Shown here: one piece after another, positions 38,087 to 63,745 of the stretch
Position numbering within the stretch: position 1 is the stretch's first letter
How the letters are laid out: each line of letters begins with the position of its first letter
Virus record (IMG/VR): IMGVR_UViG_3300034095_001584
Source: a virus
Lineage: Duplodnaviria > Heunggongvirae > Uroviricota > Caudoviricetes
Length of the DNA stretch: 64,000 bases
Direction: 5' to 3' (one strand)
Program-made: the position numbers and the translations under genes
Notes under the pieces: model-generated
Seen by the model: the letters and a program-made list of their open reading frames with translations, nothing else
What the model was told of the DNA's origin: nothing
Database searches by the model: none

Positions 38087-38518
38087 TTAATTATTATTTT
38101 CAACCACTCCATATCCAGAACCATATGGAGATGATTTACCAGATTCTGGATTGGATGTTTCTTTATTTAGTTGTATTGTTTTTGCTTTTGATGCCTCTTT
38201 ACGTTGTATAGCATAGTCTAAAGCAGTTTTTAACCTACTTTTAACATCTGGATCTTTTGCATTTTGATAAGCAGATCTAACTCTCTGATGTATAAGATTT
38301 ATAATTTGAGATTGTCTTTTGTGACTTTTTGATTTAAAAGCACTACTAGATAGTGTATCTTTAATGTCTTGTGATGTTCTAAATTTTACCCGAACCGTAT
38401 CCTTTGGATTTTCATCAGTATACAATCTTCTATCAGATCCTTTTGGCTTTTTACCAGTTCCAACTTTTGGATCTGATTCAGCTAAAATTTCATTTAAAAT
38501 GTCAATTAAACTAATCAT
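38087..38518 (-). CDS. basic protein with propeptide-like N-terminus MISLIDILNEILAE
   Basis: 143 aa, Lys/Arg-rich. Confidence 0.55.
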   Translation of the reverse strand: MISLIDILNEILAESDPKVGTGKKPKGSDRRLYTDENPKDTVRVKFRTSQDIKDTLSSSAFKSKSHKRQSQIINLIHQRVRSAYQNAKDPDVKSRLKTALDYAIQRKEASKAKTIQLNKETSNPESGKSSPYGSGYGVVENNN

Positions 38519-38805
38519 TTTGCTAACTCATCCAGTTTAGATTGCATCTTCATACCACGCTTAACTTCAGGAGTACCACCACTATCTCTATTAAAATAAC
38601 GCTTATAATTACTTAATGCTACATCCAATTTAGCTTTATCAATAGTCCCTTCAGATAACATTTTTTTTACCATTTCCAAATTATTAACCACTAATACATT
38701 GGTGTCATCAATAACTTCATCCATCAATTTTAAAAGAGATGGATCAACCACTTCTTTAACTTTTGCATTGTTTAAATCCTCAACAATTTTCTTTAACTTA
38801 ATCAT
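38515..38805 (-). CDS. hypothetical protein (N-terminus MIKLKKIVEDL)
   Basis: 96-aa ORF, ATGA overlap. Confidence 0.5.
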   Translation of the reverse strand: MIKLKKIVEDLNNAKVKEVVDPSLLKLMDEVIDDTNVLVVNNLEMVKKMLSEGTIDKAKLDVALSNYKRYFNRDSGGTPEVKRGMKMQSKLDELAK

Positions 38806-38850
38806 GATTATAAATAGTATACAAATTTATATATACTCTTTTTTTTAAAA

Positions 38851-38926
38851 TGGTGGACCGTGCTGGACTTGAACCAGCAACCGAAGAATTATGAGTTCTC
38901 TGCACAAACCATTATGCTAACGGTCC
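38851..38926 (-). tRNA. tRNA-Met/Ile2 (anticodon CAT), 76 nt, CCA encoded
   Basis: hand fold: GGACCGT/ACGGTCC acceptor, D stem GCAT/GTGC, anticodon loop CTCATAA, T arm GCTGG-TTCAAGT-CCAGC. Confidence 0.75.
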
Positions 38927-38949
38927 ATTAAAATTACTATTACTAAAAC

Positions 38950-39025
38950 TGGAGCGATATCTCGGACTTGCACCGGCCTTGTGGACTGGAAGGTCTACCG
39001 TGCTCCTCATAGACACTAATATCGC
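38950..39025 (-). tRNA. irregular tRNA-like gene, anticodon unresolved
   Basis: perfect 7-bp acceptor GCGATAT/ATATCGC plus CCA; D arm GTG-N10-CAC like its neighbour; weak T stem; no clean anticodon stem. Confidence 0.3.
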
Positions 39026-39033
39026 ATTAAAAA

Positions 39034-39106
39034 TGGAGCGGGTCCGAACTTTGCATTTCGCCTTTTAGTCTGGTAGACTAACGTGCTCTCTTTACACCTG
39101 ACCCGC
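39034..39106 (-). tRNA. tRNA-like gene, 73 nt, anticodon read as ACC (Gly?) - uncertain
   Basis: acceptor GCGGGTC/GACCCGC, T70, CCA; anticodon stem TTAGT/ACTAA with loop CTACCAG; 4-bp T stem with 8-nt loop ATGCAAAG. Confidence 0.4.
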
Positions 39107-39443
39107 ATATTAAATCAAAATAGGAAGGACTAATGATTACCTCCAAGTTTCAGAATCACGACTGGTTATTCATCCACAGTCCACACGGGTAATTACTCCT
39201 TGTGTTAATGACTGATGGGATTTTGTTTTCCCCACAACGGGCTACGATTTATCATATATTTTAGCTACGGTCCCGTTACGCTCAAATTTGGGGTTGAACG
39301 ACCTCAAATTCTCCATAGACTTACCCCCCATGATTCCTACTCCAACCAATATACAACGTTTTTCAACGCCATATATTGTGCGTTACAACTAAACTAATCG
39401 TTGTTCCGCCACTATCTTAAATTGTTAAAGAACTATCAAAAAA

Positions 39444-39721
39444 TGGTAGGCGTGAGTGGATTCGAACCACCGCTTTACAGATTTTCGTACCACTATAATT
39501 TTCATTACACATTTCTGTTTTGTGGTCTGGACTTTCTCTTCATCATAACATTTCTGTTTTAGATGTTTGCCGTTAAGTCTCTACACCTTCTCATTTCTGA
39601 GCTTGGCTCGGGATTGGCAGTTAAGCTTTCCCCGAATTTGACAAATTCTACTTTAGAGATTTCTCTCTAAGCACTCAATTTACGCTAAAGTCTGTTGACT
39701 CTTCCGCTGGTCTACACGCCC
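39444..39721 (-). tRNA. split tRNA gene (anticodon UAA, class I) interrupted by ~202-nt intron after U34
   Basis: 5' exon 39721..39688 holds acceptor GGGCGTG, D arm with GG, anticodon 5' stem ACAGA and CUU; 3' exon 39485..39444 holds AAAA, TCTGT, AAAGC, GGTGG-TTCGAAT-CCACT, CACGCCT, A, CCA. Confidence 0.6.
39486..39687 (-). ncRNA. putative group I intron in tRNA anticodon loop
   Basis: exon ends in U, intron ends in G; intron GAGU can pair with exon ACUU giving a U.G P1 helix; no ORF inside. Confidence 0.4.
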
Positions 39722-39806
39722 ATTTAAATTACTTACAAAGAACTATTACTTACTACTCTTTCATCTTATCACATCATCCTCTGATGTCAACTGGTTTTTC
39801 AAAAAA

Positions 39807-39890
39807 TGGTGGCTATGGAGGGACTTGCACCCCCACGGTTTTACCCACGGCTTTTTGAGAACCGCATGTCTTCTATTCCATCACATAGCC
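39807..39890 (-). tRNA. tRNA-Leu (anticodon CAA), class II with long variable arm, CCA encoded
   Basis: acceptor GGCTATG/CATAGCC, anticodon stem CGGTT/AGCCG with loop CTCAAAA, 14-nt variable arm, T arm GGGGG-TGCAAGT-CCCTC. Confidence 0.65.
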
Positions 39891-39898
39891 ATTAAATT

Positions 39899-39975
39899 TG
39901 GTAGTCCAGGTGGGGATTGCACCCACGACCTCACCCTTATAAGGAGTGTGCTCTGACAAACTGAGCTACTGGACC
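39899..39975 (-). tRNA. tRNA-Ile (anticodon UAU), 77 nt, CCA encoded
   Basis: acceptor GGTCCAG/CTGGACT (G1.U72), D arm GCTC-AGTTTGTCA-GAGC, anticodon loop CTTATAA, T arm GTGGG-TGCAATC-CCCAC. Confidence 0.65.
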
Positions 39976-40075
39976 ACTAAAGTTTTTTAAAGAACTAAAT
40001 TGTTGAATTCTTAGTTACAGAGTTTATTCTGTATGCAATAGTCACTACGTGCAAGTGATTCAACTTTGACTATCT

Positions 40076-40147
40076 AGCGGGGGAGGGAATCGAACCCCCT
40101 ACCTTCCGGTTATGAGCCGGACGATCTATTCCGTTGATCTACCCCGC
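40076..40147 (-). tRNA. tRNA (anticodon CAT), no encoded CCA
   Basis: acceptor GCGGGGT, D arm GATC-AACGGAATA-GATC, anticodon stem TCCGG/CCGGA with loop CTCATAA, T arm GGGGG-TTCGATT-CCCTC; one acceptor/T junction irregularity. Confidence 0.6.
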
Positions 40148-40439
40148 AAATTGTTTTGTTAAAGAACTAACTAAAATCGGTGTGGTTTATTTAAAGTCCA
40201 AACCACAAAATTACTAATGTTCACTTCAACATTAACGAGTTTCTTCTACCTTTGAAACTTCATTTTGAATGAGATTTTTAATCTAAGGTAACCAATCTCA
40301 ATTAACCTAAAATCATCTTATCACACATTGATGTTTTGTCAACATCTAAAATTGTCGCCGGTCTTTTAATTGGCGCTTTAATCCTCTGGTGGGGAACCAA
40401 CTCAAGTGTCCTATTAATCGGATATTCTCCGGGCGTAAA

Positions 40440-40515
40440 TGGTAGCTATGACAGGAATCAAACCTGTATATTCCATCTTATGAGGATGGCGCATCAATCA
40501 TTCTGCCACATAGCC
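40440..40515 (-). tRNA. tRNA (anticodon CAT), 76 nt, CCA encoded
   Basis: acceptor GGCTATG/CATAGCT (G1.U72), anticodon stem CCATC/GATGG with loop CTCATAA, T arm ACAGG-TTTGATT-CCTGT. Confidence 0.7.
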
Positions 40516-40522
40516 ACTGAAA

Positions 40523-40573
40523 TGGTCGCTCGCCTAAGAATCTCACTTAGTTACCAATGGTTATGAGCCATCG
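40523..40573 (-). pseudogene. truncated tRNA, 3' half only (CAT anticodon arm, T arm, acceptor 3' strand and CCA; no 5' half)
   Basis: GATGG-CTCATAA-CCATT, CTAAG-TGAGATT-CTTAG, GCGAGCG-A-CCA present; no complementary 5' acceptor or D arm within 60 nt. Confidence 0.4.
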
Positions 40574-40799
40574 TCAAATAATAACCTGCCGCCAGCTGTT
40601 TAAATTTAAAGAACAAATTAAAAATTGTGTTGGATGTGTTTATTGAATACTTTATCCACCCAACAAACAAAGTATACCATGACTCATCCCCGCAACCAAG
40701 AAGTTTTTTCAGAGACTTCCAACTCTAGGGGTGTTTTGGTTATTTACCCTCCACCAATCAGTTTTGTCTTCTGGACAACTGATCAACCAGAAATATATA

Positions 40800-41522
40800 T
40801 TACTCTATATTTAGTTTAGAGTCAACAAAATCTTTCAATTTTCTTACTCCTTTGCCTGAACAAACTCTTGAACAATATTGAAATTTAGCTGGCTTTCCAC
40901 AACATAAACATTTATTGTTTTTAACATTATGTGGATTTCCTTCATAAAGTTCAATGAAATTTTTCCCATATTTGGACTCTACATATTTAATTATAGGTTT
41001 AATTTCGTTTTTGTCAACCACTAAAATTTTTTCTGTAAAGTATTTTTGTTTATTTTCAAATTCTTTTTCTTTGTACCCTTTTATTTCAACATAAGTTTCT
41101 GACTCAATCAAATAAAAATCTGGATAATATTTAGAAACTTTTCCTTTTGTGTTTATATAATCAAATGATTTAGTATTGCGATTAAATCTTATATTAAGAT
41201 CAATTGAATAAATTACCCATGCTAATTCATAACTGCTATTACAGAATATACCTTTATACCATCCAGACTTTGATCTACCCGATCCCAGTCTAGCTCCACC
41301 GGATTTTCCTTTGAAAAATCCTTTATCTCTAGCTAACTCTTTACATTGCAAAGAACAGAATTTTCTTTTGTCAGACGGCCTAAGATACATTTTTTTATTA
41401 CATTCTACACAATGCAGAATTTTCTTTTCTTTTTTAGAAAGAATAAATTTATCTGGGTTTAATCTGACCAACTCTTTTAGTTTGTTTTTTATTTTTAATT
41501 TAGTTTCTTCAGAGTGTTTCAT
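40800..41522 (-). CDS. free-standing homing-endonuclease-like protein (NUMOD3-type motif, terminal zinc ribbons, possible PD-(D/E)xK core)
   Basis: HSEETKLKIKNKL resembles NUMOD3; CVEC...CSLQC and CLCCG...CSRVC; DFYLIESETYVEIKG; sits inside tRNA cluster. Confidence 0.45.
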   Translation of the reverse strand: MKHSEETKLKIKNKLKELVRLNPDKFILSKKEKKILHCVECNKKMYLRPSDKRKFCSLQCKELARDKGFFKGKSGGARLGSGRSKSGWYKGIFCNSSYELAWVIYSIDLNIRFNRNTKSFDYINTKGKVSKYYPDFYLIESETYVEIKGYKEKEFENKQKYFTEKILVVDKNEIKPIIKYVESKYGKNFIELYEGNPHNVKNNKCLCCGKPAKFQYCSRVCSGKGVRKLKDFVDSKLNIE

Positions 41523-42023
41523 ATCAATAAATAGTATGAACCCCTCTCAAACTATTGATTATTTTTGTCTTAAAAATGGTATCCCATAGCGGTGCTGCCC
41601 CGCTTTCTCCGGAGTGAAAGTCCAGTGATCTAGCTGATAATCTAATGGGACAATAAATTGGTAGGGCCTGACGGTAACGATCCGTCTTCCAGGGATTAAA
41701 AGTCCCTTGCTTCACCATTAAAGCTTAGACCCCATTAAAATTTGTTAAAGAACTTACTACAAAGTCATCTTACTACACATTCTTCTTTTGTCAACTATTT
41801 CTTTGTTCTTTGTTGGTGACTCCCTTTGATTAAAGGTCAAGGCAGTTCCGCCATACGTAGATGTTCTAGAGGAGTGCTTCTCCCACCATGCTGAAAGAAC
41901 AAAGAATCGTTTACTTACTACTTCTTTATCTTACCACTAAGTTTTCAAAGATCAACTTCTTTTTTCAAGAAGTTTTGAGGTAAATTATAAATATAATGAA
42001 ATATTCAAATTTTACCAGAAATT

Positions 42024-42099
42024 TGGTGTCCCCACCAGAAATCGAATCTGGATCATTCGCTTAGAAGGCGAATGCTCTAACCATTTGAGCTATAGGGAC
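42024..42099 (-). tRNA. tRNA-Arg (anticodon UCU), 76 nt, CCA encoded
   Basis: acceptor GTCCCTA/TGGGGAC, D arm GCTC-AAATGGTTA-GAGC, anticodon stem TTCGC/GCGAA with loop CTTCTAA, T arm CCAGA-TTCGATT-TCTGG. Confidence 0.8.
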
Positions 42100-42109
42100 A
42101 TTCAATTAT

Positions 42110-42439
42110 TTAGTTTTCAAGTTCTTTCTGAATTTGTTTTCCAAGTTCAGTAAGACCAAACAATGGTTCATTATCATCATTGTAACCTACAATTTCCATA
42201 ATACCATCTGCAACCATCTTGTCAACTGTTTGTTTGACTTCATTCAGAGCAAGTTCATTGTAAATTTCCTCTGCTTCTTGTTCAGAACATTCAAATTCTG
42301 ACATAAGAAACTGAATTGACAAGACTTTTTCTGACTCAACAATATTTTTTTGATTTTCTTTAACGTCAAGGTTAACGCAGTGTTCTAGTAGATCATCTAC
42401 GCTACCCTTGAATGTTCCTGGCAAGTTGGATTTATCCAT
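42110..42439 (-). CDS. hypothetical acidic protein
   Basis: 109-aa ORF. Confidence 0.5.
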   Translation of the reverse strand: MDKSNLPGTFKGSVDDLLEHCVNLDVKENQKNIVESEKVLSIQFLMSEFECSEQEAEEIYNELALNEVKQTVDKMVADGIMEIVGYNDDNEPLFGLTELGKQIQKELEN

Positions 42440-42450
42440 GTATGTATTGT

Positions 42451-42753
42451 TTACTTTAGATTTGTTACAAATGGAACGCCCTTGTAATAACGTACAGAGC
42501 GGTCAGCAATTTGATTCAGTGCCTTAGAAACACGGTGTGGAGTCTTTACCTTTGTACCCCATCCCTTTTCAGCACGGCCAGTTGCAATAACAATAGCCTT
42601 TTGCTTATTGAAGCGGTCACCGGCCTTGGTATTGGTGTAACTCCATCCAAACCGGACAGATCCGTCAATTACGGTTGCAACAACCATGCCACGGGGTTGG
42701 TCATCACGGTCACGTACAAACTGCATCAACATGGGCTTATCAATAGTGTTCAT
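42451..42753 (-). CDS. hypothetical protein
   Basis: 100-aa ORF. Confidence 0.5.
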   Translation of the reverse strand: MNTIDKPMLMQFVRDRDDQPRGMVVATVIDGSVRFGWSYTNTKAGDRFNKQKAIVIATGRAEKGWGTKVKTPHRVSKALNQIADRSVRYYKGVPFVTNLK

Positions 42754-42816
42754 TTTTATTTTTTATTTTGTGTTAATTCAGACTACATATTTAGAATACC
42801 ACGGATTTTCTCAAAG

Positions 42817-43032
42817 TCAACGGTTTTTTCCTGCCAAGGGAACAAACGCATTTTTTGGGACTTCCAGTAGGATATCACCGTCAGAGAGCACCAAGTTGAC
42901 GGTCATGTCATTGAGGGATTCAATCTTTTCAATATCAAAAATGTCATTCTTGGACAGATATTTTGGCCAGACTTCTTGCAAACGAGTCTTGTCAATATCA
43001 ATATCAATGTTTTTTAGAATTTTGATTTTCAT
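42817..43032 (-). CDS. hypothetical small protein
   Basis: 71-aa ORF. Confidence 0.45.
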   Translation of the reverse strand: MKIKILKNIDIDIDKTRLQEVWPKYLSKNDIFDIEKIESLNDMTVNLVLSDGDILLEVPKNAFVPLAGKNR

Positions 43033-43072
43033 ATGTTCTTTATTGTATCTGGTTTATGTTTGTTGTCAAAAT

Positions 43073-43110
43073 AAAAAAATCTGAATAAGTTTCCCTATTC
43101 AGACTTTTCT
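43073..43110 (-). terminator. stem-loop terminator (A-run, tctgaata...tattcaga, T-rich tail)
   Basis: 8-bp stem with flanking A/T runs downstream of 43130..43492. Confidence 0.5.
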
Positions 43111-43129
43111 AACTTTATTTTATTTAAAA

Positions 43130-43492
43130 TTAATCTAGTGTGAGTAGGTACTTGAGTTTTTGTAATTCACCCAACATTTCATCTCTTATGTTTAATAAGT
43201 TTGTATCTTCTGGTTTGAGTTGTTTAGGCAATTCAGTTACTAAGAATGTTATAAACTCTTCAATGAATTTTTCTGGATCTTTATCTGAAATGTTACTGGA
43301 TTCAACTTTGAATCCACCTTTTGCCATAATTCTAGCATTCTTACCCATGAATTCTTCAATGAATTGATCAATGTATCCAGTGAATGCATCATAAGCACCA
43401 CCAAAAGCTTGATGTTGAGCATAACTTTCAGTTTGCCAATGATAAACCTTCAATTGGTTATGTAGAGTTAAAAATTTTGTAATTAAGTCCAT
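43130..43492 (-). CDS. hypothetical protein
   Basis: 120-aa ORF. Confidence 0.5.
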   Translation of the reverse strand: MDLITKFLTLHNQLKVYHWQTESYAQHQAFGGAYDAFTGYIDQFIEEFMGKNARIMAKGGFKVESSNISDKDPEKFIEEFITFLVTELPKQLKPEDTNLLNIRDEMLGELQKLKYLLTLD

Positions 43493-43507
43493 ATGATATA
43501 AGTATAG

Positions 43508-43981
43508 TTATCTGTGATAAAGTAACTCTTTTTGTTTTAGTTCTTGTATTTTGTTATTATAAAATTCTATTGTTGTTATGTTTTGGATAGATTTATATAA
43601 TTGTATTTGTTCTAATTGATCTAATATCATGAGCCTACGTTCATTTCTCATTTGTGACAATATTTTATATAAATCATCATCTTCTACATTTATATCTGAT
43701 TCTAATTTTGACAGTTTGTATCTTAGATCCGTCTCAACTTTATTCAATGGATCTATTTGATCAATTTGTTGTTCTAATTTACTGATTTTGTGTTTATATG
43801 TTATTTGCGTAGGCAAAAATCCAAGAGTTACTAAAAATAGTACAACACCAACTAGTGTATAAATTTCTTTTTTAGTAAATTTTCTCAATGAAGATGGTTT
43901 AGGTGTCTCAACAACTTGTTCAGTTGTAGGACTAATAGGAGGAGGAGTAAATTCCTTATTACCAACCATGATTTTTCCCAT
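43508..43981 (-). CDS. N-terminal TM helix plus coiled-coil protein (spanin/holin-associated-like topology)
   Basis: IYTLVGVVLFLVTLGFL then long heptad region. Confidence 0.45.
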   Translation of the reverse strand: MGKIMVGNKEFTPPPISPTTEQVVETPKPSSLRKFTKKEIYTLVGVVLFLVTLGFLPTQITYKHKISKLEQQIDQIDPLNKVETDLRYKLSKLESDINVEDDDLYKILSQMRNERRLMILDQLEQIQLYKSIQNITTIEFYNNKIQELKQKELLYHR

Positions 43982-43999
43982 AACAGATTTACTTATAAC

Positions 44000-44233
44000 T
44001 TAGTATTTAACAGACCATCTTTTTGGCGCATTAGGATCTACTGGAGTTGGTTTGTTGGCTTGATGTTGTTGTGCCAATTTATTGACTAAATCATCTACTC
44101 TTGCTTGTTGTGCTGCTTTTTTAGCTTCAACTGCGGCTTGTTGAGCGTCATATTGAGCTTGAGTCATACCAGGGTTGTTTGTGTGTAAACCTCCTACTGG
44201 TCTTAATGTTGTAATTCCACCTGCTACCATCAT
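44000..44233 (-). CDS. hypothetical small protein (Gln/Ala-rich)
   Basis: 77-aa ORF. Confidence 0.45.
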   Translation of the reverse strand: MMVAGGITTLRPVGGLHTNNPGMTQAQYDAQQAAVEAKKAAQQARVDDLVNKLAQQHQANKPTPVDPNAPKRWSVKY

Positions 44234-44292
44234 AATATTCCTTTTGTTAGATTGTTACCTATAAATATTAATTTTATAGTTAATTAGTTATT

Positions 44293-44520
44293 TTATTTGA
44301 GATAACTATCTATGACCAAGGATTCTTGTACCGCATCCAAATAACCCTCATTGATCATATAAGTTAATATTTTATCTCTACACGCATCTCCAGCAGCGTC
44401 TAAATAACAACCTGCGGGATGTTCTAGTATCAATACTGCGCCTTCAGAACATATTCTAACGTCATGGTTATATACACAAACATGTTTACTAGTATCTTCA
44501 ATCATGATTATATATATCAA
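44293..44520 (-). CDS. hypothetical small protein
   Basis: 75-aa ORF, ATGA overlap with next. Confidence 0.45.
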   Translation of the reverse strand: MIYIIMIEDTSKHVCVYNHDVRICSEGAVLILEHPAGCYLDAAGDACRDKILTYMINEGYLDAVQESLVIDSYLK

Positions 44521-44783
44521 ATACTATAATCTAAAAACTCTTCTTGATTATCAAAATGCGCTTTTATATTTTCAGGTTTGCGCCTAAACCTTCCTACTTT
44601 TGGATGATCACTTGAATATACTGTTAATCTTTGACAGCTAAGCGCATAACCACACAAATCTTTAGATAATCCTTTGCGCTCATGCGTTACAACCACATAA
44701 CTTTCATCAGGCACATCCAATTCAAAATCCACTATAATTCTATAATGTTTCTTAATGCTTTTTGCTTGAAGCGCTTCATCCAT
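44517..44783 (-). CDS. hypothetical small protein
   Basis: 88-aa ORF. Confidence 0.45.
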   Translation of the reverse strand: MDEALQAKSIKKHYRIIVDFELDVPDESYVVVTHERKGLSKDLCGYALSCQRLTVYSSDHPKVGRFRRKPENIKAHFDNQEEFLDYSI

Positions 44784-44903
44784 ATTATATTTAATGTGCT
44801 TGCTATTATAATAATTTCAGGAGATTTGTCAATATTATATTTTGATATAAAAAATCCTGTATATAAATACATCATATACAGGTTGCTTAATTTATTTTAA
44901 TTG

Positions 44904-45425
44904 TTACAGATTAATATATAATTTCTTGCCATCCTGACCACTATACTTGAATCTGGTAACAGGCACAGATAGGCTTAATCCTTCTTTGATATGAGGAAAC
45001 TTGCCTTTTTGTACATAAGCCACCGTCATGTGTGGTTTATAATCTGGATATTTATCCTCATTCTTATAACAATCACATCTACGTCTTATTTCAGATAGTA
45101 TCTCATTCTTTTCCACATCAAACTTGACCACATCATACTTTTCATTTTGAAATTGGGTTAAACCAGTAAGTTTAACAACAAATGGTTTGATACCTTGTAG
45201 GATAGTGGCTAAATTAGCCCTTGTTAAGTCAGGAGAATAACCATACTTAGCTGTAATGTGTGGTTCATCATCATAACCATAGGTACTGTCATTTGGATCT
45301 GTATAAAGAATTTGTGGTGGTATTACTGTTTTACCAAATTTAATGATGTGTGGTCCTCTGGTTGGTTCAACTATAGCCATTAAACAACCAAATTCATTGT
45401 GTCTATTTTCTGTAATCAAGTTCAT
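44904..45425 (-). CDS. 2H phosphoesterase (LigT/2',3'-cyclic phosphodiesterase-like)
   Basis: two HxTx motifs (PHITAKYG and PHMTVAYV) ~75 aa apart in a 173-aa protein. Confidence 0.6.
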   Translation of the reverse strand: MNLITENRHNEFGCLMAIVEPTRGPHIIKFGKTVIPPQILYTDPNDSTYGYDDEPHITAKYGYSPDLTRANLATILQGIKPFVVKLTGLTQFQNEKYDVVKFDVEKNEILSEIRRRCDCYKNEDKYPDYKPHMTVAYVQKGKFPHIKEGLSLSVPVTRFKYSGQDGKKLYINL

Positions 45426-46474
45426 ATCTTTTTTAAATATTTGCTGTAATCAGGTATATTTTCATTACTCCATCTACTTAGAGTGAGTCTGTGTGTAATG
45501 TTTTTATCATTATTTTTTCTATTACGGCTGATTAATTTACCGTCAACATAAAAATCAAACATTATGGTTTCATATTTACCAGCTTTAATATTATACGCAC
45601 TTCTACCACCTCTAATATTACTTGCCAAGCTAATAATCTTTAATTTAGCACCTTTTTTAAGATTACCAAGAAAATCATAGGAATTTTCTGTATACTTACT
45701 TGGTTCAGCTTTAACGCCGTCAAATATGTTATTGCCAATGTAATTCAATAAAGAAGATATTTCTTCTGGAGTATAATCAGGTTTAACTTCCTCACCTTTA
45801 GCCAATGATTTACTATTAAGATATAAAGTCAACTGTGCTCTTAACTTATCACTTTCAGTAACAACTACATCATCACCAATAACAAATGGTGTAGACTTTT
45901 CACTTTCACTTACTACTTCAGTTACAATAGCACCATCACTCAATACTTCTATATCTCTCAAAGCGGATTTACCAAATGCAGCAATATTTGGTTTTTCACC
46001 CATCCAATATTCATAAGCTTCACGGGGTAAATATTCCATTAATCTTTTTGGATTTTGTAGTAAATCTTTTTCAATTTCCGCTCTTTCTGGTTGATCATAT
46101 CTACTAATATACTCATAGTATTCATTATCAAATCTTTCCATAATAGCATCTATCAATGTACTATCAGCTACAAAGATTCTACCCGTTGGTTTTATTCTGT
46201 ACAAATATCCTTTATCAATAAATCTACTACGGGGAATTAAACTACTATATACGCAATTTAATCTACTAGGAGCATCTGGAGCAGTTTCTTTTCTTTCTTC
46301 TTCCAATGCTAATTCACCCATCTTATAAGTTAAATAATGTTTATTGGCAGTATCTCTAGGTATTTCTACTGCATCACCAACATTCATTTTACGCAAACTA
46401 CGATGATACAATGGAGTGTTTGTGCTTATTTCACTAAGCAATTGTTCTAAAAGAAGATGGGTTAGTTTAATCAT
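45422..46474 (-). CDS. hypothetical protein with propeptide-like N-terminus MIKLTHLLLEQLLSE
   Basis: 350-aa ORF, ATGA overlap. Confidence 0.55.
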   Translation of the reverse strand: MIKLTHLLLEQLLSEISTNTPLYHRSLRKMNVGDAVEIPRDTANKHYLTYKMGELALEEERKETAPDAPSRLNCVYSSLIPRSRFIDKGYLYRIKPTGRIFVADSTLIDAIMERFDNEYYEYISRYDQPERAEIEKDLLQNPKRLMEYLPREAYEYWMGEKPNIAAFGKSALRDIEVLSDGAIVTEVVSESEKSTPFVIGDDVVVTESDKLRAQLTLYLNSKSLAKGEEVKPDYTPEEISSLLNYIGNNIFDGVKAEPSKYTENSYDFLGNLKKGAKLKIISLASNIRGGRSAYNIKAGKYETIMFDFYVDGKLISRNRKNNDKNITHRLTLSRWSNENIPDYSKYLKKI

Positions 46475-46478
46475 AAAA

Positions 46479-47327
46479 TTACATTACAAATATATCACCA
46501 GTGTTTGATCTCAATACATCTTCAACATAATATGGTATTGTATTTGCAATCATATTCAAATGTTCTTGTGCGTCAGCTAAGTTTTGTGTACTTGCAATAG
46601 TTTTGCTACCATATGGTCCATAACCAACCAAAATGTTTTTGGTCAATGGATTAAATTTAATCTCACCGTCTTTCAAATATTGTACAAACAATTCATAGTA
46701 AAATTCATATGGTCTAAGATGTATTCTACCTTCTCTAGCACTACGCATTGTACCTATATGATTGAATAATCTACCCTTAGCTAAATCATAAGCTCTGGAT
46801 CTTTTATAATCATTATCATTAAAACTATATCTGGTGTTTACTTTTTGTTTACCATACAAAGCAAGTAATTCATCAAATTGTTTATCCAACCAGTTTGTAT
46901 ATTCTTGAAACTGTGGTGTTCTATTCATTGCGTGACCAACTCTATGAACAATTGTCCACGCAGTCATAGGAATTTTATCCGCAGCGGTATTACCTACAAA
47001 GAATACAGTGATATTATCACTATTTATAGTTCTATCACCCAATTCTTCATGTGTCAATCCTAAACCATCTGGTTGTGGTTTGAAGATAAATTCATATGGT
47101 ACTCTACCTTTTTCCGCAAATTTTCTCAATCCAGGCTTGTTAACAAAGTAAAAGTCAAAGTCAACAATTGTATTTTTCAACATATCCTTGACTTTTTGTA
47201 CTGTTACTGGATGGCTAACAGAAGCTCTGTCTCTTGGATCTTTATATGATGCACCCTTTTCAAAGTCACCTATGGTTGTATATGTACCTATAGGCGCTTC
47301 ATTTAGTAAGTCAATAAGTTTAATCAT
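46479..47327 (-). CDS. hypothetical protein with propeptide-like N-terminus MIKLIDLLNEAP
   Basis: 282-aa ORF. Confidence 0.55.
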   Translation of the reverse strand: MIKLIDLLNEAPIGTYTTIGDFEKGASYKDPRDRASVSHPVTVQKVKDMLKNTIVDFDFYFVNKPGLRKFAEKGRVPYEFIFKPQPDGLGLTHEELGDRTINSDNITVFFVGNTAADKIPMTAWTIVHRVGHAMNRTPQFQEYTNWLDKQFDELLALYGKQKVNTRYSFNDNDYKRSRAYDLAKGRLFNHIGTMRSAREGRIHLRPYEFYYELFVQYLKDGEIKFNPLTKNILVGYGPYGSKTIASTQNLADAQEHLNMIANTIPYYVEDVLRSNTGDIFVM

Positions 47328-47331
47328 ATAA

Positions 47332-48348
47332 TTAGACTTCTACAATTCTCTTTGCAATGTCAGCAATAGCTTTTTGTTGTTTAGGGAATATTTCAGTTGG
47401 AAAGATTTTATCTACCCAAGTTCTAAATATTTCTTTGTTTCTGAATTTTTCTGGTAATACATTCAAGTCATCAAAGTGATATTCACTGTTATGTTTAATC
47501 ATACCAATATTTTCACCGTCACCTTGTACTTTGAATCCTTGCAACATTGCATTAGCAATAAATTCAACACAAGCTGGTTGATATTTTTCAACTGGTTCTC
47601 TATTTTGTTTACCCTTGATTTGTTGAATAGTCTTTCTGTTATCATCTGCTTCAATAGTCACATGAGATCTATCTCTGTTATCCCATAGTGAATAAATGTC
47701 TTTGTTTTCATAACCTTCACCACCTACACAATGTCCCATTACATCACCTTCAACATCTTTTGCTTTTGGTGTAAGTAGTTTTACCCACTTTAATCCAGAA
47801 ATTTCCTTGATAATCTTATAATCAGTACCTTTGGTAAGTGTTTTCTTTAAAGTATCTTCCTTCTTGGTATCATTTGATGTTGATGCCAATTCTCTGTCCC
47901 ATTCTTGTACCTTTTGTTTGATGACTCTATATGGTTCTTTGTAGATTTTTCTCAAGTCATTTGCGTCAAGTGTAGCAAAATAGTCTACTGTGTGACTGAT
48001 TTCATCAACTACATCTTCTGGCAAGTCACCACTAAAGTCCATGATGTCAGGCTTATTCATCCATTCTGGTTCACCTTCACTATATTTATGTGGTGTGATA
48101 GATGATTGCAAGTCAACTTCATCTTCTTTGATGGCTTTTACATATTGTTTTAAGAACCAATCTCTTACTTTATTGGTTTCACTACCAGCAAATTGTGGAA
48201 TGTCTTTGTTGTCCAATACTTTGTTTATGGCAGTTAGTAATTCTGAAAAATTTGTTAGATTGGCTTCTGTCAATAGTTGTTTCATATGTTTATAAATATT
48301 AGTTTGAATTTTATTATTATACTGAAATGACAATTTCTTCTGCTTCAC
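47332..48348 (-). CDS. hypothetical protein
   Basis: 338-aa ORF. Confidence 0.5.
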   Translation of the reverse strand: MKQKKLSFQYNNKIQTNIYKHMKQLLTEANLTNFSELLTAINKVLDNKDIPQFAGSETNKVRDWFLKQYVKAIKEDEVDLQSSITPHKYSEGEPEWMNKPDIMDFSGDLPEDVVDEISHTVDYFATLDANDLRKIYKEPYRVIKQKVQEWDRELASTSNDTKKEDTLKKTLTKGTDYKIIKEISGLKWVKLLTPKAKDVEGDVMGHCVGGEGYENKDIYSLWDNRDRSHVTIEADDNRKTIQQIKGKQNREPVEKYQPACVEFIANAMLQGFKVQGDGENIGMIKHNSEYHFDDLNVLPEKFRNKEIFRTWVDKIFPTEIFPKQQKAIADIAKRIVEV

Positions 48349-48997
48349 ACACTCTTGCTACATCTCTTCTTGTAAGTTCTCTGTCTTTCATAAAATTATT
48401 AATAAGCACTCTTTTTGCATATTTTGGAAATCCTTCCAATGATAGTATTGGATTATGATAACATTGAAAATCTCCAAGTACAACTTCAGGAGCACCAATA
48501 AAATTTTCTAATTGGTTGAATCCTATTTTTAGTTCCCTACATTGTTTTGGCATTCCAACCAAAGATTTTAGTGTATTAAATTCAAGATGATATGTACCAT
48601 GGATATTTTGATTACAATATTCCATTGTTTGCAATGGTGTACCCATAATTTTTAAAGTTATTAGATGATGTGCAAGACCCTTTAGACTTTTTAAATTGTT
48701 ATTACCAATTATCTCTAATTTATTAATGTGTGACGGACATCCTTCCAAATCACTAAATTTACTAGCATGGATAGATAATGTTGATACTGCGGTTTGTTTT
48801 ATACCTTTTAAACTAACCAATGGATTTGAACCAAATTGTATATTTCCCGTAACAAGTTCTGGAAAATTTTCTAATGTAGTGAGACGATTATCATTCAAAA
48901 ATAAATTGCCTTCAATTGTTAAATCTTTAAATATTTCAGGCAACTTCTTTAAATGAAGACCTGCTAATGTTACATCTCCTTTTATATATTTTCCCAT
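48317..48997 (-). CDS. LRR-type repeat protein, paralog 1 of 4
   Basis: ~21-23-aa repeats of NxL(T/K)SLxGxP type. Confidence 0.6.
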   Translation of the reverse strand: MGKYIKGDVTLAGLHLKKLPEIFKDLTIEGNLFLNDNRLTTLENFPELVTGNIQFGSNPLVSLKGIKQTAVSTLSIHASKFSDLEGCPSHINKLEIIGNNNLKSLKGLAHHLITLKIMGTPLQTMEYCNQNIHGTYHLEFNTLKSLVGMPKQCRELKIGFNQLENFIGAPEVVLGDFQCYHNPILSLEGFPKYAKRVLINNFMKDRELTRRDVARVCEAEEIVISV

Positions 48998-49008
48998 ATT
49001 ATTAATTG

Positions 49009-49743
49009 TTAAATTTGTATATTTCTTGGGTCAGAAAGTCGTACTGCACCAGATATTCTGCATCTTTTGCGGAGTTCTCTTTCAAAGTAACTACGTTGCA
49101 TCATTAATTGATTGTTAAATATAGGTGAAAGTGTCATGATACAATCACCGTCAATTACTGTAGGAAATCCGTCTAAATCCTCTAAGTTATTGTATTTACA
49201 CCGAAAATTGCCAGTAATATGTGTAGGACATCCAATCAATGTTTTTAACCTATTATTATTAATATTTAAATGATGACACTTTGTTGGCATACCAAGCAAT
49301 GAAGTAATTTTATTATCTCCTAAATTTATAAGAACTCCTTGTTCTGTACTAGGGAAATTATCTAAAGATGATAATGAACACTCTTGTATAATCAAATGAC
49401 CATTTGTATTAATTTTCTTTAAATTGCCTTTTAAACTATTAAATTCATCCACATATTTTATAGTCAATGATGTTACTATTTCTGGACATCCTTCTAAGTT
49501 TTTAATCTTTGTGTTACTAACATCAAGATAAGCTGCTTTTTTTTGTTTAATTCCAACTAAACTTGCAATTGGATTATTACTTAAATAAATTGTATTACAA
49601 CTAACAGGAAAATTATTTAGATTTTTTATACTATTACCATCAATATTAAACCGTCCATCTTCAATTACCACATCATTTAATATTGACGGTATTTCTCTCA
49701 AATAAAGATTGTTTAAATTTACATCTCCAGTTATTTTTTTCAT
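49009..49743 (-). CDS. LRR-type repeat protein, paralog 2 of 4
   Basis: same repeat family; shared N-terminal GDVNLxxLxLREIP. Confidence 0.6.
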   Translation of the reverse strand: MKKITGDVNLNNLYLREIPSILNDVVIEDGRFNIDGNSIKNLNNFPVSCNTIYLSNNPIASLVGIKQKKAAYLDVSNTKIKNLEGCPEIVTSLTIKYVDEFNSLKGNLKKINTNGHLIIQECSLSSLDNFPSTEQGVLINLGDNKITSLLGMPTKCHHLNINNNRLKTLIGCPTHITGNFRCKYNNLEDLDGFPTVIDGDCIMTLSPIFNNQLMMQRSYFERELRKRCRISGAVRLSDPRNIQI

Positions 49744-49747
49744 AATG

Positions 49748-50473
49748 TTATATTGTAGCTATACCACCAATAATGTTGCTGATGGATCTAATTTCCTTAA
49801 ATATGTTTCCGTCAGTAAGACCAGGAAATATTCTACGCATATCAATCATACCGATATACAATTTACCTTCAATTACATGCGGTAATCCTTCAATTGATCT
49901 TAAACTTCGTAAACTTGTTGCATAAAAATTTCTTCCAACAAATTTAGGACCACCCACAAAGTTTTCAATTGGATTAGCATCACATTCATAATTTGCATTC
50001 ACTCTATATGGACTACCTGCCAATGATGTTAATTTATTTGAGGTTACATCAAATGAACTAAATTCAATTGACTCAAATCCATATCCAATCAAACTTGTAA
50101 TTTTATTATCAGTTACCTTTAATGATCTATTAGATTTTAGTGTTGGAAGACCTTGTAATGATGTCAATTGATTAGATGATACATCTACACCTCCTCCAAT
50201 AATTTTTGCAATACCATCCAATGATGTTATTTTATTAAAATTACAATAATAACTTCCTTGAACTTCTTGTGGACCATCTCTTAATGATGTTAAGTTGTTA
50301 TGACTACAATCAAAATTGCCTTTTACAAATGACGGACAATTTTTTAATGAGGCAAGTTTATTATTAGATATATCATATGAACCATGACACGCATACATTG
50401 CAATATTATCTGGTATTTCTCTTAGAAACATATCATCCAACTCTACATTGTCATAAAAATGTTTGCGTCTCAT
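49748..50473 (-). CDS. LRR-type repeat protein, paralog 3 of 4
   Basis: SHNNLTSLRDGPQEVQGSYYC / NFNKITSLDGIAK... periodic repeats. Confidence 0.65.
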   Translation of the reverse strand: MRRKHFYDNVELDDMFLREIPDNIAMYACHGSYDISNNKLASLKNCPSFVKGNFDCSHNNLTSLRDGPQEVQGSYYCNFNKITSLDGIAKIIGGGVDVSSNQLTSLQGLPTLKSNRSLKVTDNKITSLIGYGFESIEFSSFDVTSNKLTSLAGSPYRVNANYECDANPIENFVGGPKFVGRNFYATSLRSLRSIEGLPHVIEGKLYIGMIDMRRIFPGLTDGNIFKEIRSISNIIGGIATI

Positions 50474-51237
50474 ACTCTACGAAATCCTCCAAAATCATCT
50501 GGTTCATAATCATCCATTTCTATTTCTGGATTTTCTTCTTCAATGTCATCTGCAGTTTTGTATATACCCCCTCCAATGTCACATATACTGTGTATTTTAT
50601 TTATTAATTCCTGAGATTTTTTCTTTGTTTCTGGAGTGTTTCTAGTTGGAAATAATATACTACCAAGTGGTGTATTGCCTAGAAAAATGTTGCCACCAAC
50701 TTCTTTTGGAAATCCTTCCAAGGAATTTATTTCTGTATCATACAACAACAAATCATCATATATTACAGTTGGACCACCAATCATATTGGTAATTGGTAAC
50801 CACAATGCTTCAAAACTGCCATGAATAATTTTAGGACACCCCTGCAATGTTTTAAGACCTGGATTATTGTATATAACTAACTCTGACAATTCTTGAGGTA
50901 AACCAACCAATGAAGTCAATTTGTTACCACTAACATCTACACGACCACCTAAAAAATTGCCAGATTTAACTATCTTTGGAAATCCTTCTAAACTTGTTAG
51001 ATTACAATTATGTACATCAATAGCACCTACTTCTTCTGGTCCACCAACCAATGAACGCAAACTTCTATTATTAGCCACATTTAAATGGCGTATAATTTTT
51101 TTAGGACAATTTTTAAGACTGCGCAAATTGTTACTATATAAACTTAATGATCCTTCAATTGAAACATCCTTTAGAATTTCCGGTATTTCTCTTAAATTTA
51201 AACCTTCTAAGTTTACATCTCCTTTAATGACTTTCAT
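50470..51237 (-). CDS. LRR-type repeat protein, paralog 4 of 4, with acidic C-terminal tail
   Basis: MKVIKGDVNLEGLNLREIP...; repeats LTSLEGFPK, LTSLVGLPQ. Confidence 0.65.
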   Translation of the reverse strand: MKVIKGDVNLEGLNLREIPEILKDVSIEGSLSLYSNNLRSLKNCPKKIIRHLNVANNRSLRSLVGGPEEVGAIDVHNCNLTSLEGFPKIVKSGNFLGGRVDVSGNKLTSLVGLPQELSELVIYNNPGLKTLQGCPKIIHGSFEALWLPITNMIGGPTVIYDDLLLYDTEINSLEGFPKEVGGNIFLGNTPLGSILFPTRNTPETKKKSQELINKIHSICDIGGGIYKTADDIEEENPEIEMDDYEPDDFGGFRRV

Positions 51238-51249
51238 GTAGTATAAATA

Positions 51250-51549
51250 TTATACTATTTGTCTTTCCATCAATGAATTATACCACTTCCTACCGTCTGT
51301 ACTTAATCTACCGTCCCATTTCAAATAATACATTCGTTGAAGTTCTTTAACCATTGCGGTTGCATGACCTCTTCTACGGTGTTCATAATGTATATTAATG
51401 AATTCAATATAAACCGTTTCAAACTCTAACAACGGTTTATAATACTTACAATATCCCAACGGTGTTCCATAATCATCTATAATATTACAACTAAATACAT
51501 CTCTTTGATCCTCAGACTCATAACCTAAGTATTGATGATTAAATTTCAT
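51250..51549 (-). CDS. GNAT-family N-acetyltransferase
   Basis: HRRRGHATAMVKEL (R/QxxGxA acetyl-CoA motif); 99 aa. Confidence 0.6.
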   Translation of the reverse strand: MKFNHQYLGYESEDQRDVFSCNIIDDYGTPLGYCKYYKPLLEFETVYIEFINIHYEHRRRGHATAMVKELQRMYYLKWDGRLSTDGRKWYNSLMERQIV

Positions 51550-51557
51550 TCAGTATT

Positions 51558-52889
51558 TTAATCTACATCCTGCGTACTTTCTTCAGCTTGTTGTACCAAA
51601 TCCTTCATATGGGACTGAGCTTTCATTCCTCCTAACAGTATCTCCTTGATTGTTTCAATTGGCAACTTATAAAATAGTTTTTTAATTATAGGTAAGTATT
51701 CAAGTTTATCTGTTGGCACCAATTTTCTCAATTTCATTTCCAATGCTGGACCTGCCATGATTTGTTTGATTTCATCATCCATGGTTTCAGTGTCCAATTC
51801 TTCTTGAGAAGCAACGTCCATACTGATATAATCACCAATTCCTTTAACCAATTCATGTACTAGATAAGGAAAGGTCATTGCTCTGGCTTTGATTGTATAT
51901 TTGTCACCAGTTGGAACTACTTGTTCACTACCTACCGCAGCCATATTTACAATGTCACTGGTAATTGGAAAGTCTGGTGTCAAATAATATCCAATTTGTG
52001 TAATTGCGGATAATACACCATATTTTTTTGATAGATTTGGACTAAGTGCATCTAGTTTATCAGAAACTATGTTAAACAAGAATAGTTTGTTTACCGCATC
52101 ACCTTGTGTCATGTAGTTTGCCAAGGTTCTTCTTAACTTACCGTCAGTATCACCACTCAACATAGTGTTTAGTTGCATATTAAGATTTTCTGCAACTGTT
52201 AGACCATTATCCATTTCTTCATCCATTTTGTCAGCGGTAACTGCACCAGTCAAATCTGCATTACCCAACTTAGCATCAATGATAATATCTCCTTCTTCTA
52301 CCAATTTTTTAATAAACTTGTTTTCTTCCAAGTCTAATACTACATCTACTGCAATTTTTTCCAATTGTTTCTTTAAATTAGATTCTGCTTTTTTAATGTC
52401 AGTCAAAGCTTTAAATGCCAACATAATCATTGTTGGATAGTTAGGAAACTTAGATTGAATTTCATTTACATTAACACCCAGATAATATGCAACTCTTTTT
52501 ATATTTTGTTGATAACTTTCACTGGTAATAATTTCTAAGTATCTATCTGCATCTGGACCTAAATCTGGTAATATTTGTTCAACATAGTCCTTTTCATTTT
52601 CAATCTTGGCTCTTTTGCTTGGATCAATGAAATCAGGCATTTCACCAGTATCAATTGCTTCTGATACTCCTTTTCTTTGATTCAAAAATGCTTGTACATC
52701 ATGACTCAAAGCCTTTGGTCTTGGTGCAATACCAGGTCTAGTTGGTCTTAATGGATTAGGTCTTGTAGTTGGTTTAGTAGGTGCAGGAGGAGCAGTTGGT
52801 TTAGTTGGTGGTTCAATTGTAGGAGCTGGTGCTTCTGCCAATACTTCTTTGATTAGTTTTACCAAACTACTTTTTAAATTTTTAGCCAT
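51558..52889 (-). CDS. protein with propeptide-like N-terminus (LVKLIKEVLAEAP) and Pro-rich linker
   Basis: PTKPTAPPAPTKPTTRPNPLRPTRPGIAPRP; 443 aa. Confidence 0.55.
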   Translation of the reverse strand: MAKNLKSSLVKLIKEVLAEAPAPTIEPPTKPTAPPAPTKPTTRPNPLRPTRPGIAPRPKALSHDVQAFLNQRKGVSEAIDTGEMPDFIDPSKRAKIENEKDYVEQILPDLGPDADRYLEIITSESYQQNIKRVAYYLGVNVNEIQSKFPNYPTMIMLAFKALTDIKKAESNLKKQLEKIAVDVVLDLEENKFIKKLVEEGDIIIDAKLGNADLTGAVTADKMDEEMDNGLTVAENLNMQLNTMLSGDTDGKLRRTLANYMTQGDAVNKLFLFNIVSDKLDALSPNLSKKYGVLSAITQIGYYLTPDFPITSDIVNMAAVGSEQVVPTGDKYTIKARAMTFPYLVHELVKGIGDYISMDVASQEELDTETMDDEIKQIMAGPALEMKLRKLVPTDKLEYLPIIKKLFYKLPIETIKEILLGGMKAQSHMKDLVQQAEESTQDVD

Positions 52890-63358: not shown

Positions 63359-63745
63359 TTATTTTTTAATCTTGAAAGTAAAATCTATTACTAAATCTTG
63401 ATTTATTGACCACATTGTTAATTGTTCATGTATATCTTGTAGATTTTCTCTTACTGTTTTTGACATTAACTCATCAATTATATCAATAATGGTGAATGTG
63501 GTTTCAATTTGTTTGTCTTTATTTGGTAATATAGACATTTTTAATTTTTCTTCAAACTGTACATCATTACCAAAATTAGCCGTTAAAACTCTATGTAATT
63601 CTAGTACATATTTTTTTAAATGATCTACATCACTACCAGTTACAGTTGAAACTATGGTTAAATCTTGTGTTGGTCTAAAACCAGGTGCAAAATCTATTTC
63701 ACATAAACATTCTTTTATCAATTGTTTCAATTGTGCTTGAGTCAT
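63359..63745 (-). CDS. hypothetical protein
   Basis: 128-aa ORF, 1-nt spacing. Confidence 0.5.
   Translation of the reverse strand: MTQAQLKQLIKECLCEIDFAPGFRPTQDLTIVSTVTGSDVDHLKKYVLELHRVLTANFGNDVQFEEKLKMSILPNKDKQIETTFTIIDIIDELMSKTVRENLQDIHEQLTMWSINQDLVIDFTFKIKK

Follow-up and report, generated by a model that had tools for sequence, protein, structure and literature searches.

The 64,000-nucleotide stretch of IMG/VR record IMGVR_UViG_3300034095_001584 analyzed here (hereafter the window, GC ~31%) is part of a large tailed phage, and several otherwise unrelated proteins encoded on its minus strand begin with a common ten-residue peptide, here called the tag. An initial annotation had drawn attention to a propeptide-like start on five proteins and had likened it to the T4-type capsid-targeting sequences that the prohead protease removes after (I/L)xE. 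All five open reading frames (ORFs) are present on the minus strand, with the coordinates, N-termini and sizes (96-443 aa) reported for them. ORFs are named by their length in amino acids (g350, g282, g143, g96, g443, g128, g317 and g173), a downward arrow marks a cut or predicted cut, and the features on which the argument turns are the following.

46479..47327, minus strand: g282, tag MIKLIDLLNE encoded at 47298-47327
45422..46474, minus strand: g350, tag MIKLTHLLLE encoded at 46445-46474
45422..46474, minus strand: hypervariable cassette slot between g282 and g173
38087..38518, minus strand: g143, small, basic cargo, tag MISLIDILNE encoded at 38489-38518
38515..38805, minus strand: g96, weak or degenerate tag MIKLKKIVED with Glu9 and Asp10, low matrix score
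51558..52889, minus strand: g443, extended tag MAKNLKSSLVKLIKEVLAE encoded at 52833-52889
63359..63745, minus strand: g128, extended tag MTQAQLKQLIKECLCE encoded at 63698-63745, 12.5 bits
47332..48285, minus strand: g317, opening the g317-g282-g350-g173 array, probable short tag MKQLLTE↓A encoded at 48265-48285, 11.0 bits
44904..45425, minus strand: g173, 2H/LigT-type phosphoesterase (2_5_RNA_ligase2, 2.9e-10), last gene of the array

The tags of g282, g350 and g143 fit the canonical pattern M-I-[KS]-L-x-x-[IL]-L-x-E, and the start said to be shared by five proteins holds for these three, is present in g443 as a core behind an N-terminal extension, and is matched weakly in g96. The cut predicted in g282 falls before Ala11-Pro12, and this protein represents the most widely conserved family of cargo (the proteins behind the tag) in the clade of related phages described below; its homologues retain the tag at 32-99% identity, and Glu10 is kept in about 115 of the 120 homologues listed, the rest having Asp10, a truncated start or a different N-terminus. 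In g350 a second L-S-E site lies five residues past the tag (...LLE↓QLLSE↓I), and homologues retain the tag down to 37% identity. The AlphaFold2 model of g350 is good (pLDDT 85.9) and places a low-confidence helix at residues 3-14, covering the tag, ahead of an N-terminal DUF2441-like domain of probable ADP-ribosyltransferase (ART) fold that is followed by a beta-rich C-terminal half. Because DUF2441 is listed in the Pfam ART clan (PMC7955679), g350 is probably an ART-fold enzyme. The protein originally described as very basic is g143, with a pI of 10.0 once the tag is removed and a matrix score of 19.9 bits, the highest of all; its tag runs into a second site, ILAE↓S (...LNE↓ILAE↓S), a related cluster in other loci matches DUF5872, and the gene is the second of the g96-g143 pair adjoining a tRNA cluster.

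Many other proteins begin with an extended form, MTKxELKxLIKEVLxE, whose last seven residues, [LI]-K-E-[VC]-L-x-E, match L-K-D-I-L-x-E, so that the same core, hydrophobic-K-[DE]-[IV]-L-x-E, lies behind an extension; extensions of one to five residues before the core are also common (MANIKLKDLLNE, MSKRIKLKDILNE). For this reason g443 is grouped with the other tagged proteins and g128 is added to them. The core of g443, LIKEVLAE, is that of the extended (type-B) tags of many other families, the cut is predicted before Ala20-Pro21 and leads directly into the Pro-rich linker noticed in the initial annotation, and homologues read MDKNLKNVILKLVEEVMTE↓AP. The core of g128, which lies outside the range covered by that annotation and is absent from its list, is LIKECLCE↓I, and homologues in three other loci (L028, L029 and L030) begin MTK(E/Q)QLKSLI(K/R)ECVCE. 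The PcfJ-like g317 (PF14284, 4.3e-7) has an N-terminus that is conserved across sister contigs and a start at ATG 48285 that is backed by an upstream motif described below, and its first residues are a probable short form of the tag. The start of g173, MNLITE↓N, could be a minimal site and is not counted as a tag; in another locus (L115) a LigT protein carries the canonical form. A proposed identity of g173 as an Acb1 homologue was dropped because its resemblance to T4 57B is limited to a short H-x-T motif (pairwise E=0.008); in T4 the gene for the 2H enzyme 57B adjoins ipI. The weakest case is g96, whose membership is doubtful because its matrix score is poor and position 10 is Asp. As Asp10 stops processing and not targeting in T4 (PMC9026906), g96 might be targeted and left uncleaved, or it might be cut after IVE9.

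The frequency of the tag is far above expectation. The strict pattern ^M[ILVT][KSRNT][LFMI]xx[ILVM][ILVM]xE begins 3 of the 108 ORFs of the window, compared with 0.012 expected from the rate at internal positions and a mean of 0.02 when residues 2-40 are shuffled. When every ATG in all six frames is considered and Glu or Asp is accepted at position 10, the 64 kb contain four matches, all of which begin real ORFs (g282, g350, g143 and g96). A matrix of the 7-residue core reaches at least 8 bits at five of 108 N-termini (g143, g282, g350, g128 and g317) versus none of 493 internal 30-residue windows. Among 80 related loci that were fetched solely by capsid-protein homology, and hence not chosen for the tag, it heads 27 of 900 unique ORFs where 0.1-0.2 would be expected.

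The same peptide is widespread outside the window. Many IMG/VR contigs, some up to 295-350 kb, resemble the window at the DNA level, and the exact string MIKLKDILxE, searched in back-translated form, is found in at least 120 stretches of IMG/VR contigs that measure up to 368 kb. Prokaryotic genomes totalling 596 Gb yield 15 matches, about nine of which are multi-tag, low-GC, phage-like contigs, one of these also encoding gp20 and gp21 homologues; the multi-tag contigs are probably phage contigs within metagenome-assembled genomes (MAGs) or single-amplified genomes (SAGs). Five of them (L243, L245, L253, L254 and L255) come from MAGs or SAGs labelled Pelagibacter TMED166, Prochlorococcus AG-409-L21 (single-cell), Flavobacteriales/Flavobacteriaceae and Nitrosopelagicus, labels that probably reflect binning artefacts or infected cells. 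Assignment of a host from these matches was rejected, since the MAG and SAG contigs are phage-like and are assigned to widely differing taxa.

As the initial annotation had proposed, tag carriers were counted and their N-termini aligned. At least 221 distinct tagged ORFs fall into 103 cargo clusters that are unlinked by BLAST after tag removal, and an alignment with one protein per cluster yields the consensus MIKLKDILxE and then nothing, with Met1 and Glu10 as the sole invariant columns. Per-position counts over 199 tagged proteins show that conservation stops sharply at Glu10, that positions 2, 3, 4, 7, 8 and 10 are the most conserved and that position 9 is variable (Leu4 in 188, Ile/Leu7 in 198 and Leu8 in 184). 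Glu10 is present in 199 of 199, but the selection pattern demanded it and confined positions 4, 7 and 8 to hydrophobic residues, which makes a test of these key positions partly circular. Directly after the cut Ala is enriched 3-fold, as is Pro one residue on, in keeping with an earlier remark on a shared EAP at this site, and a second [ILVM]xE site lies within residues 11-20 of 20% of tagged proteins versus 11% of control windows. In one locus (L025, 9617-10849) a g282 homologue is fused behind an unrelated domain of ~130 aa with the junction ...AEAIAE↓AP, an arrangement that suggests a two-domain precursor that would be processed internally.

Several synonymous codons are used at every tag position (Leu4, for example, is encoded by TTA, CTA, CTT, CTC and TTG), and the 30 nt upstream of tagged genes have no consensus. 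Together with the end of conservation after Glu10, these observations indicate selection on the peptide and not on DNA or RNA; selection on DNA was looked for by this codon and upstream comparison and was not found. The tag outlasts most of the protein within families, being retained to 32-37% identity, and it is retained over capsid-protein divergence to about 50-65% identity and over genomes of 31%-40% GC. The tag is real, N-terminal, selected as a peptide and common to ~103 unrelated families.

What proteins stand behind the tag? A Pfam run on the 103 cluster representatives gave matches to 43 families, nearly all by a single member, and left most representatives unmatched. Cell-wall enzymes among the cargo are phage lysozymes, peptidase M23 and cell-wall hydrolase; further matches are to poly(A)/CCA polymerase, RNase T, NUDIX, HD, 2'-5' RNA-ligase-type phosphoesterase, RimK/ATP-grasp, GNAT, phosphoribosyltransferase, an ADP-ribosyltransferase exoenzyme domain and Zeta-toxin/AAA_33 kinases. 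By analogy, this range matches that of known injected effectors (ART folds, GNAT, NUDIX, 2H phosphoesterase, kinases, CCA-adding enzyme and peptidoglycan hydrolases), and such cargo types make anti-defence or host-takeover roles plausible. The five proteins of the initial annotation have no significant match in Pfam, PHROGs or NCBIfam, and PDB sequence searches with g282, g350 and g443 returned no match; g282, g443 and g96 are without fold or family after the Pfam, PHROGs and NCBIfam searches, extended for g282 and g443 to the PDB. In comparisons with 50,697 phage records, megablast of the region revealed no DNA-level resemblance to known phages, tblastn with g282 found no match, tblastn with g143 found a single pelagiphage ORF and nothing else, and an SNF2 helicase gave distant tblastn matches only.

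Tagged genes lie in tandem arrays that include a hypervariable slot. The window and its sister contigs have in common the gene order g443, GNAT, four leucine-rich repeat (LRR)-like paralogues, g317, g282, a variable slot and g173; in this slot, where the window has g350, L018 has three different MIKL-tagged genes and L002 has one tagged gene. Tandem arrays of four to seven tagged genes are found in other relatives (L020 and L026). In LR756508, a complete 484-kb genome of an uncultured phage (loci L258-L267) with 721 ORFs, there are 16 strict long, 5 short and 21 minimal tags, which amounts to ~42 ORFs or ~6%, and the long core occurs just once internally in 142,132 residues. This genome also encodes about 22-24 tagged paralogues of 240-285 aa with a conserved [LF]YRG motif (for example at 177696-183575, 255042-264085, 297444-299862 and 329494-337233), nearly all of which begin with the minimal tag M-x-[LF]-K-x-L-L-x-E. 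That these might be ADP-ribosyltransferases related to g350 was considered and dropped, because they have no significant Pfam match and a g350-family profile found nothing in this genome.

T4 head proteins were used as phmmer queries against the ORFs of tag-bearing loci. These loci encode homologues of the T4 gp17 terminase, gp20 portal, gp21 prohead protease, gp23 capsid protein and gp18 sheath, and on this evidence the phages of the clade are distant relatives of T4. Closest to the window is the 295-kb contig IMGVR_UViG_3300023179_004209, with identities of 95% for g282, 96% for g317, 95% for g173 and 88% for g443, and its locus L206 carries the whole head module (gp21 E=1e-22, gp23 E=2.5e-32) in the order terminase, portal, two small proteins, gp21 homologue, a 555-aa protein, a tagged 146-aa protein, two reverse-strand ORFs, a gp22-like acidic scaffold, gp23 homologue and another tagged protein. 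A 22-kb span of L161 encodes protease, capsid protein and a g282 homologue of 76% identity. The prohead protease whose presence the initial annotation had proposed to look for is encoded in the sister contig (L206) and in L161, and not in the window itself. The nearest cultured phages by capsid-protein identity are Flavobacterium phage immuto (52%) and Microcystis phage Mel-JY01 (50%), and the corresponding values are 51% for uncultured LR756508 and 37% for Rhodothermus phage RM378. In immuto, the gene at NC_055915 24569-24994 begins MIKLIDLLTE↓S, and a 104-aa protein encoded at 112261-112575 begins MRLLELLRE.

The proteases of the clade keep the T4 gp21 blocks GELxHP and G[IV]SSRG, and the capsid proteins keep the site on which such a protease would act. 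In a MAFFT alignment the T4 gp23 site L-T-E65↓A66, where the T4 protein is cut between Glu65 and Ala66, is matched by QLLNE↓ATATG (L206), QLLDE↓AS (L161) and QIVSE↓AN (immuto), and the aligned site in 76 unique capsid proteins of the clade reads Q-L-[LIV]-x-E↓[AS] with the Glu invariant. Since the g282 tag ends ...D-L-L-N-E↓A-P and the capsid site reads QLLNE↓A, the tag ends in the sequence that the protease is expected to use in capsid maturation. Protease, scaffold and capsid protein in this lineage are all of the T4 type, and the tag ends in the capsid's aligned maturation motif. Scaffold proteins of the clade are dense in [ILVM]xE sites, as is T4 gp22. A conserved internal scaffold segment, ...(E/D)(I/V)(N/S)LDELLAE↓LE... 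(L006 373-1494, L161 8828-9949, L206 8885-9946), fits the tag pattern, and this resemblance hints that the tag might imitate the scaffold segment; the Pro/Ala-rich linkers of the scaffold also resemble the linker after the g443 tag.

We consider it likely that the shared N-terminus is a T4-type capsid-targeting propeptide, as the initial annotation had suggested from the (I/L)xE end. According to this account, the tag, probably as a short helix, would bind the scaffolding core of the assembling prohead, and any protein placed behind it would be built into the head. The gp21-family protease would then cut after Glu10, at the same L-[LIV]-x-E↓A site that matures the capsid protein, freeing the mature cargo inside the capsid, from which it would exit with the DNA at the next infection and act ahead of phage gene expression. 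Core binding, cleavage after Glu10, presence in the virion, ejection and a takeover or anti-defence role are what we infer by analogy with T4.

The parallel with T4 is close at several levels. T4 gp21 cleaves after L/I-x-E, the first 10 residues of IPIII suffice to package foreign proteins, and within this tag residues 4 and 7 govern targeting and residues 8 and 10 govern processing (PMC9026906). The capsid-targeting sequences (CTS) of T4 IPI, IPII, IPIII and Alt are, like the tag described here, 10-residue N-terminal peptides on otherwise unrelated proteins, with hydrophobic residues at positions 4, 7 and 8 and Glu at position 10, ending in L/I-x-E and usually followed by Ala. In the T4 genome ipII and ipIII begin MKTYQEFIAE↓A, alt begins MELITELFDE↓D and gp24 begins MAKINELLRE↓S, all with 10 residues and Glu10. 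The lineage resembles T4 further in its gp21-type protease, gp22-type scaffold and gp23-type capsid protein, in the location of the genes in variable regions, some adjoining a tRNA cluster, and in a cargo that includes a probable ADP-ribosyltransferase fold and small basic proteins such as g143; the packaged Alt protein of T4 is itself an ADP-ribosyltransferase (PMC9026906). The T4 sequence closest to the tag is the gp24 propeptide, which shares M-x-K-[IL]-x-[DE]-[IL]-L-x-E and sits on a gp21-cleaved protein; unlike the tagged cargo, gp24 is a shell protein. Unlike the T4 CTS, the tag has the consensus MIKLKDILxE and an extended form, MTKxELKxLIKEVLxE, and in place of T4's handful there are ~103 cargo families, arrays of up to seven genes and ~42 tagged ORFs in one 484-kb genome. 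Much of the cargo consists of sizeable enzymes, again unlike T4. A CTS has been proposed to let T4-like phages take in varied proteins (PMC9026906), and the phages described here would carry that principle much further.

Several points weigh against a capsid-targeting propeptide. The window itself is without head genes, and it is sister contigs that supply the link to the protease; some of the cargo, endolysin-like lysozymes and a CCA-adding enzyme among it, is of no obvious use within a capsid; and g96 fits poorly. Co-regulation of tagged and head genes could not be demonstrated, the motif found upstream of many tagged genes being missing before head genes, and virion mass spectrometry of immuto or Mel-JY01 was not found in the literature searched. 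The tag shares with T4 MKTYQEFIAE just its length and its hydrophobic and acidic pattern, with no detectable homology beyond these; a 10-residue peptide is too short to establish homology, which weakens the case for common descent of the tags but not for a like mode of action.

How else could the tag be explained? One hypothesis is that the tag is a recognition and cleavage signal for the prohead protease, or an assembly signal for the prohead core, on proteins that serve head assembly as structural or scaffolding components; these would be degraded or expelled during maturation like T4 gp67, gp68 and gp22, and would not be injected effectors. Some tagged genes are indeed conserved in the head module, directly behind the gene for the protease or the capsid protein (L206 7336-7776 and 11755-12366; L161 7185-7649), tag-like motifs occur inside the scaffold, and T4 core proteins are cleaved at the same motif (PMC9026906). 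However, variable accessory genes make up most of the 103 families; many of them encode enzyme domains (ART, NUDIX, GNAT, lysozyme, CCA-adding), and they lie in hypervariable arrays far from the head module, a pattern that suits cargo and not scaffold, so that we judge this explanation unlikely. An alternative hypothesis, which we regard as quite improbable, is that the peptide addresses or regulates proteins apart from the capsid, as a helix docking to a chaperone or partner, a signal for membrane or compartment localisation, or an N-terminal stability signal. The evidence is at the level of sequence, and short helices such as that modelled at residues 3-14 of g350 have many uses; the tag, however, is without a hydrophobic core or signal-peptidase or lipobox features, occurs on T4-like phage contigs alone, agrees in length and key positions with the tag tested in T4 and ends in the motif of the capsid protein's aligned maturation site. 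Moreover, an invariant Glu10 next to a variable residue 9 suits a protease site better than a docking helix.

A further hypothesis is that the shared start is a by-product of cassette shuffling or gene duplication, the DNA serving as a handle, or of an optimum for translation initiation, and that the peptide has no function. Tagged genes do occur in tandem arrays with a hypervariable slot, and the conserved 5' ends of T-even internal-protein genes are linked with modular shuffling. The freedom of synonymous codons at every position, the lack of consensus in the upstream 30 nt and the persistence of the peptide over diverged capsid proteins and genomes of different GC make this explanation very unlikely, and an optimum for translation would leave Leu8 and Glu10 unfixed. 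A chance likeness produced by AT-rich codon usage, which the initial annotation had named as a possible flaw and which the low GC of the window and the many ORFs beginning with MK or MN might favour, is practically negligible given the observed counts (3 versus 0.01-0.02 in the window, 27 versus 0.1-0.2 in the unbiased loci, and 5/108 N-termini versus 0/493 internal windows in the matrix test), which are far above expectation and show that the motif is not compositional.

A capsid-targeting propeptide also invites comparison with other phages that package proteins. In phiKZ, 201phi2-1 and SPN3US a diverged gp21 homologue cleaves many proteins of the head interior on the C-terminal side of Glu and a large protein mass is packaged and ejected, as is predicted here, and the propeptides of phiKZ-like inner-body proteins often hold redundant sites (PMC9026906), to which the enrichment of second sites in the tagged proteins is similar. 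Unlike the tag, phiKZ propeptides are long, have the motif S/A-x-E and show no single shared decapeptide. The motif in the tags and at the capsid site is [IL]-[LIV]-x-E in place of the S/A/G-x-E of phiKZ-type phages, the head genes match T4, and phiKZ-type genes were not encountered in the lineage, where no dedicated search for them was made; the inner-body parallel drawn in the initial annotation therefore stands as an analogy, with nothing that ties the lineage to phiKZ. The head lineage of phage P1 is unrelated, and its proteins are loaded through protein-protein hierarchies (DarA, Hdf), which are not known to use a short universal cleavable tag. The P1 Dar (defence against restriction) proteins and other head-packaged anti-restriction proteins (PMC9024508, PMC12810830) resemble the proposed cargo in being loaded during morphogenesis and injected to shield DNA. 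Polyvalent proteins of phages and conjugative elements, which are injected with DNA and include ART and GNAT domains (PMC7824862), overlap with the cargo in domains (ART, GNAT, NUDIX, 2H phosphoesterase, peptidases and PcfJ-like) but are single giant polypeptides, whereas here the domains are encoded by separate small genes, each tagged.

The principle of capsid targeting is known from T4. A search of the literature for the tag strings found none, and no report of the tag, the extended form or the scale was found; the phrase 'capsid targeting' occurs in none of the top-ranked papers on jumbo or huge phages, and an overview of jumbo phages (PMC7824862) has no mention of prohead proteases or propeptides. 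Whether one near-invariant 10-residue address has made the capsid of widespread, uncultured, aquatic, T4-like large and huge phages a general vehicle for protein delivery, with more than 100 families co-injected, we regard as evenly poised. Should the tag act as it does in T4, the injected proteins of a whole environmental clade could be listed by a simple rule, and the injected proteome of these phages would be readable straight from sequence; identifying such proteins is otherwise difficult unless virions can be purified, and the phages in question are uncultured. The resulting catalogue of immediate-early anti-defence and takeover factors would be rich and well past T4's handful, with candidates such as inhibitors of restriction, of CBASS-type signalling or of tRNA-cleaving defences, and modifiers of host RNA polymerase. 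A further consequence would be that the capsid-targeting principle of T4 is old, general among T4-like heads and scalable to dozens of cargo per genome, and that a second, naturally validated tag is available for putting foreign proteins into phage heads.

A number of other features of the window were recorded, with coordinates on the whole stretch.

441-7194: collagen-like and T7-type tail-fibre genes
38851-42099: tRNA gene cluster
38809-38816, 48291-48298, 52895-52902, 63751-63758 and others, minus strand: (A)TATTTATA motif upstream of ATG

At g96, g317, g443, g128 and several other genes, a gap of 3-5 nt separates the end of the motif (A)TATTTATA from the ATG; the motif always has the orientation of the gene, and no Shine-Dalgarno sequence is visible at these genes. 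It resembles a class of promoters from which almost leaderless mRNAs would arise. In related loci TATTTATA is found in front of 35% of the tagged genes and 18% of the others, and the protease, terminase and capsid genes all lack it. The idea that ATATTTATA is a late promoter common to tagged and head genes was dropped, since it is absent before the protease, terminase and capsid genes. Sister contigs also conserve the four tandem LRR-like paralogues (226-255 aa; 48317-51237, minus strand) that are located between g443 and g317; these weakly resemble the LRR regions of SspH2 and SlrP and have no Pfam match.

Within the tRNA cluster, the tRNA-Phe(GAA) gene (39444-39721, minus strand) has its anticodon loop split by a 202-nt intron, as called by ARAGORN with introns allowed, and the intron coincides with an Rfam group I intron match (39505-39697, 74.8 bits). 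A 240-aa ORF with Cys-rich ends is also found inside the cluster (40800-41522, minus strand), and adjoining it is a tRNA-like Rfam match (41580-41651, minus strand, 39.4 bits) that has no ARAGORN call; the ORF may be a homing endonuclease beside a degenerate tRNA. The minus strand at 56252-60981 seems to encode an RNA ligase-like protein, a metallophosphatase and a P-loop kinase, as judged by the N-terminal sequences in the ORF list alone; in combination with the tRNA cluster and g173, such genes would point to a toolkit for tRNA repair.

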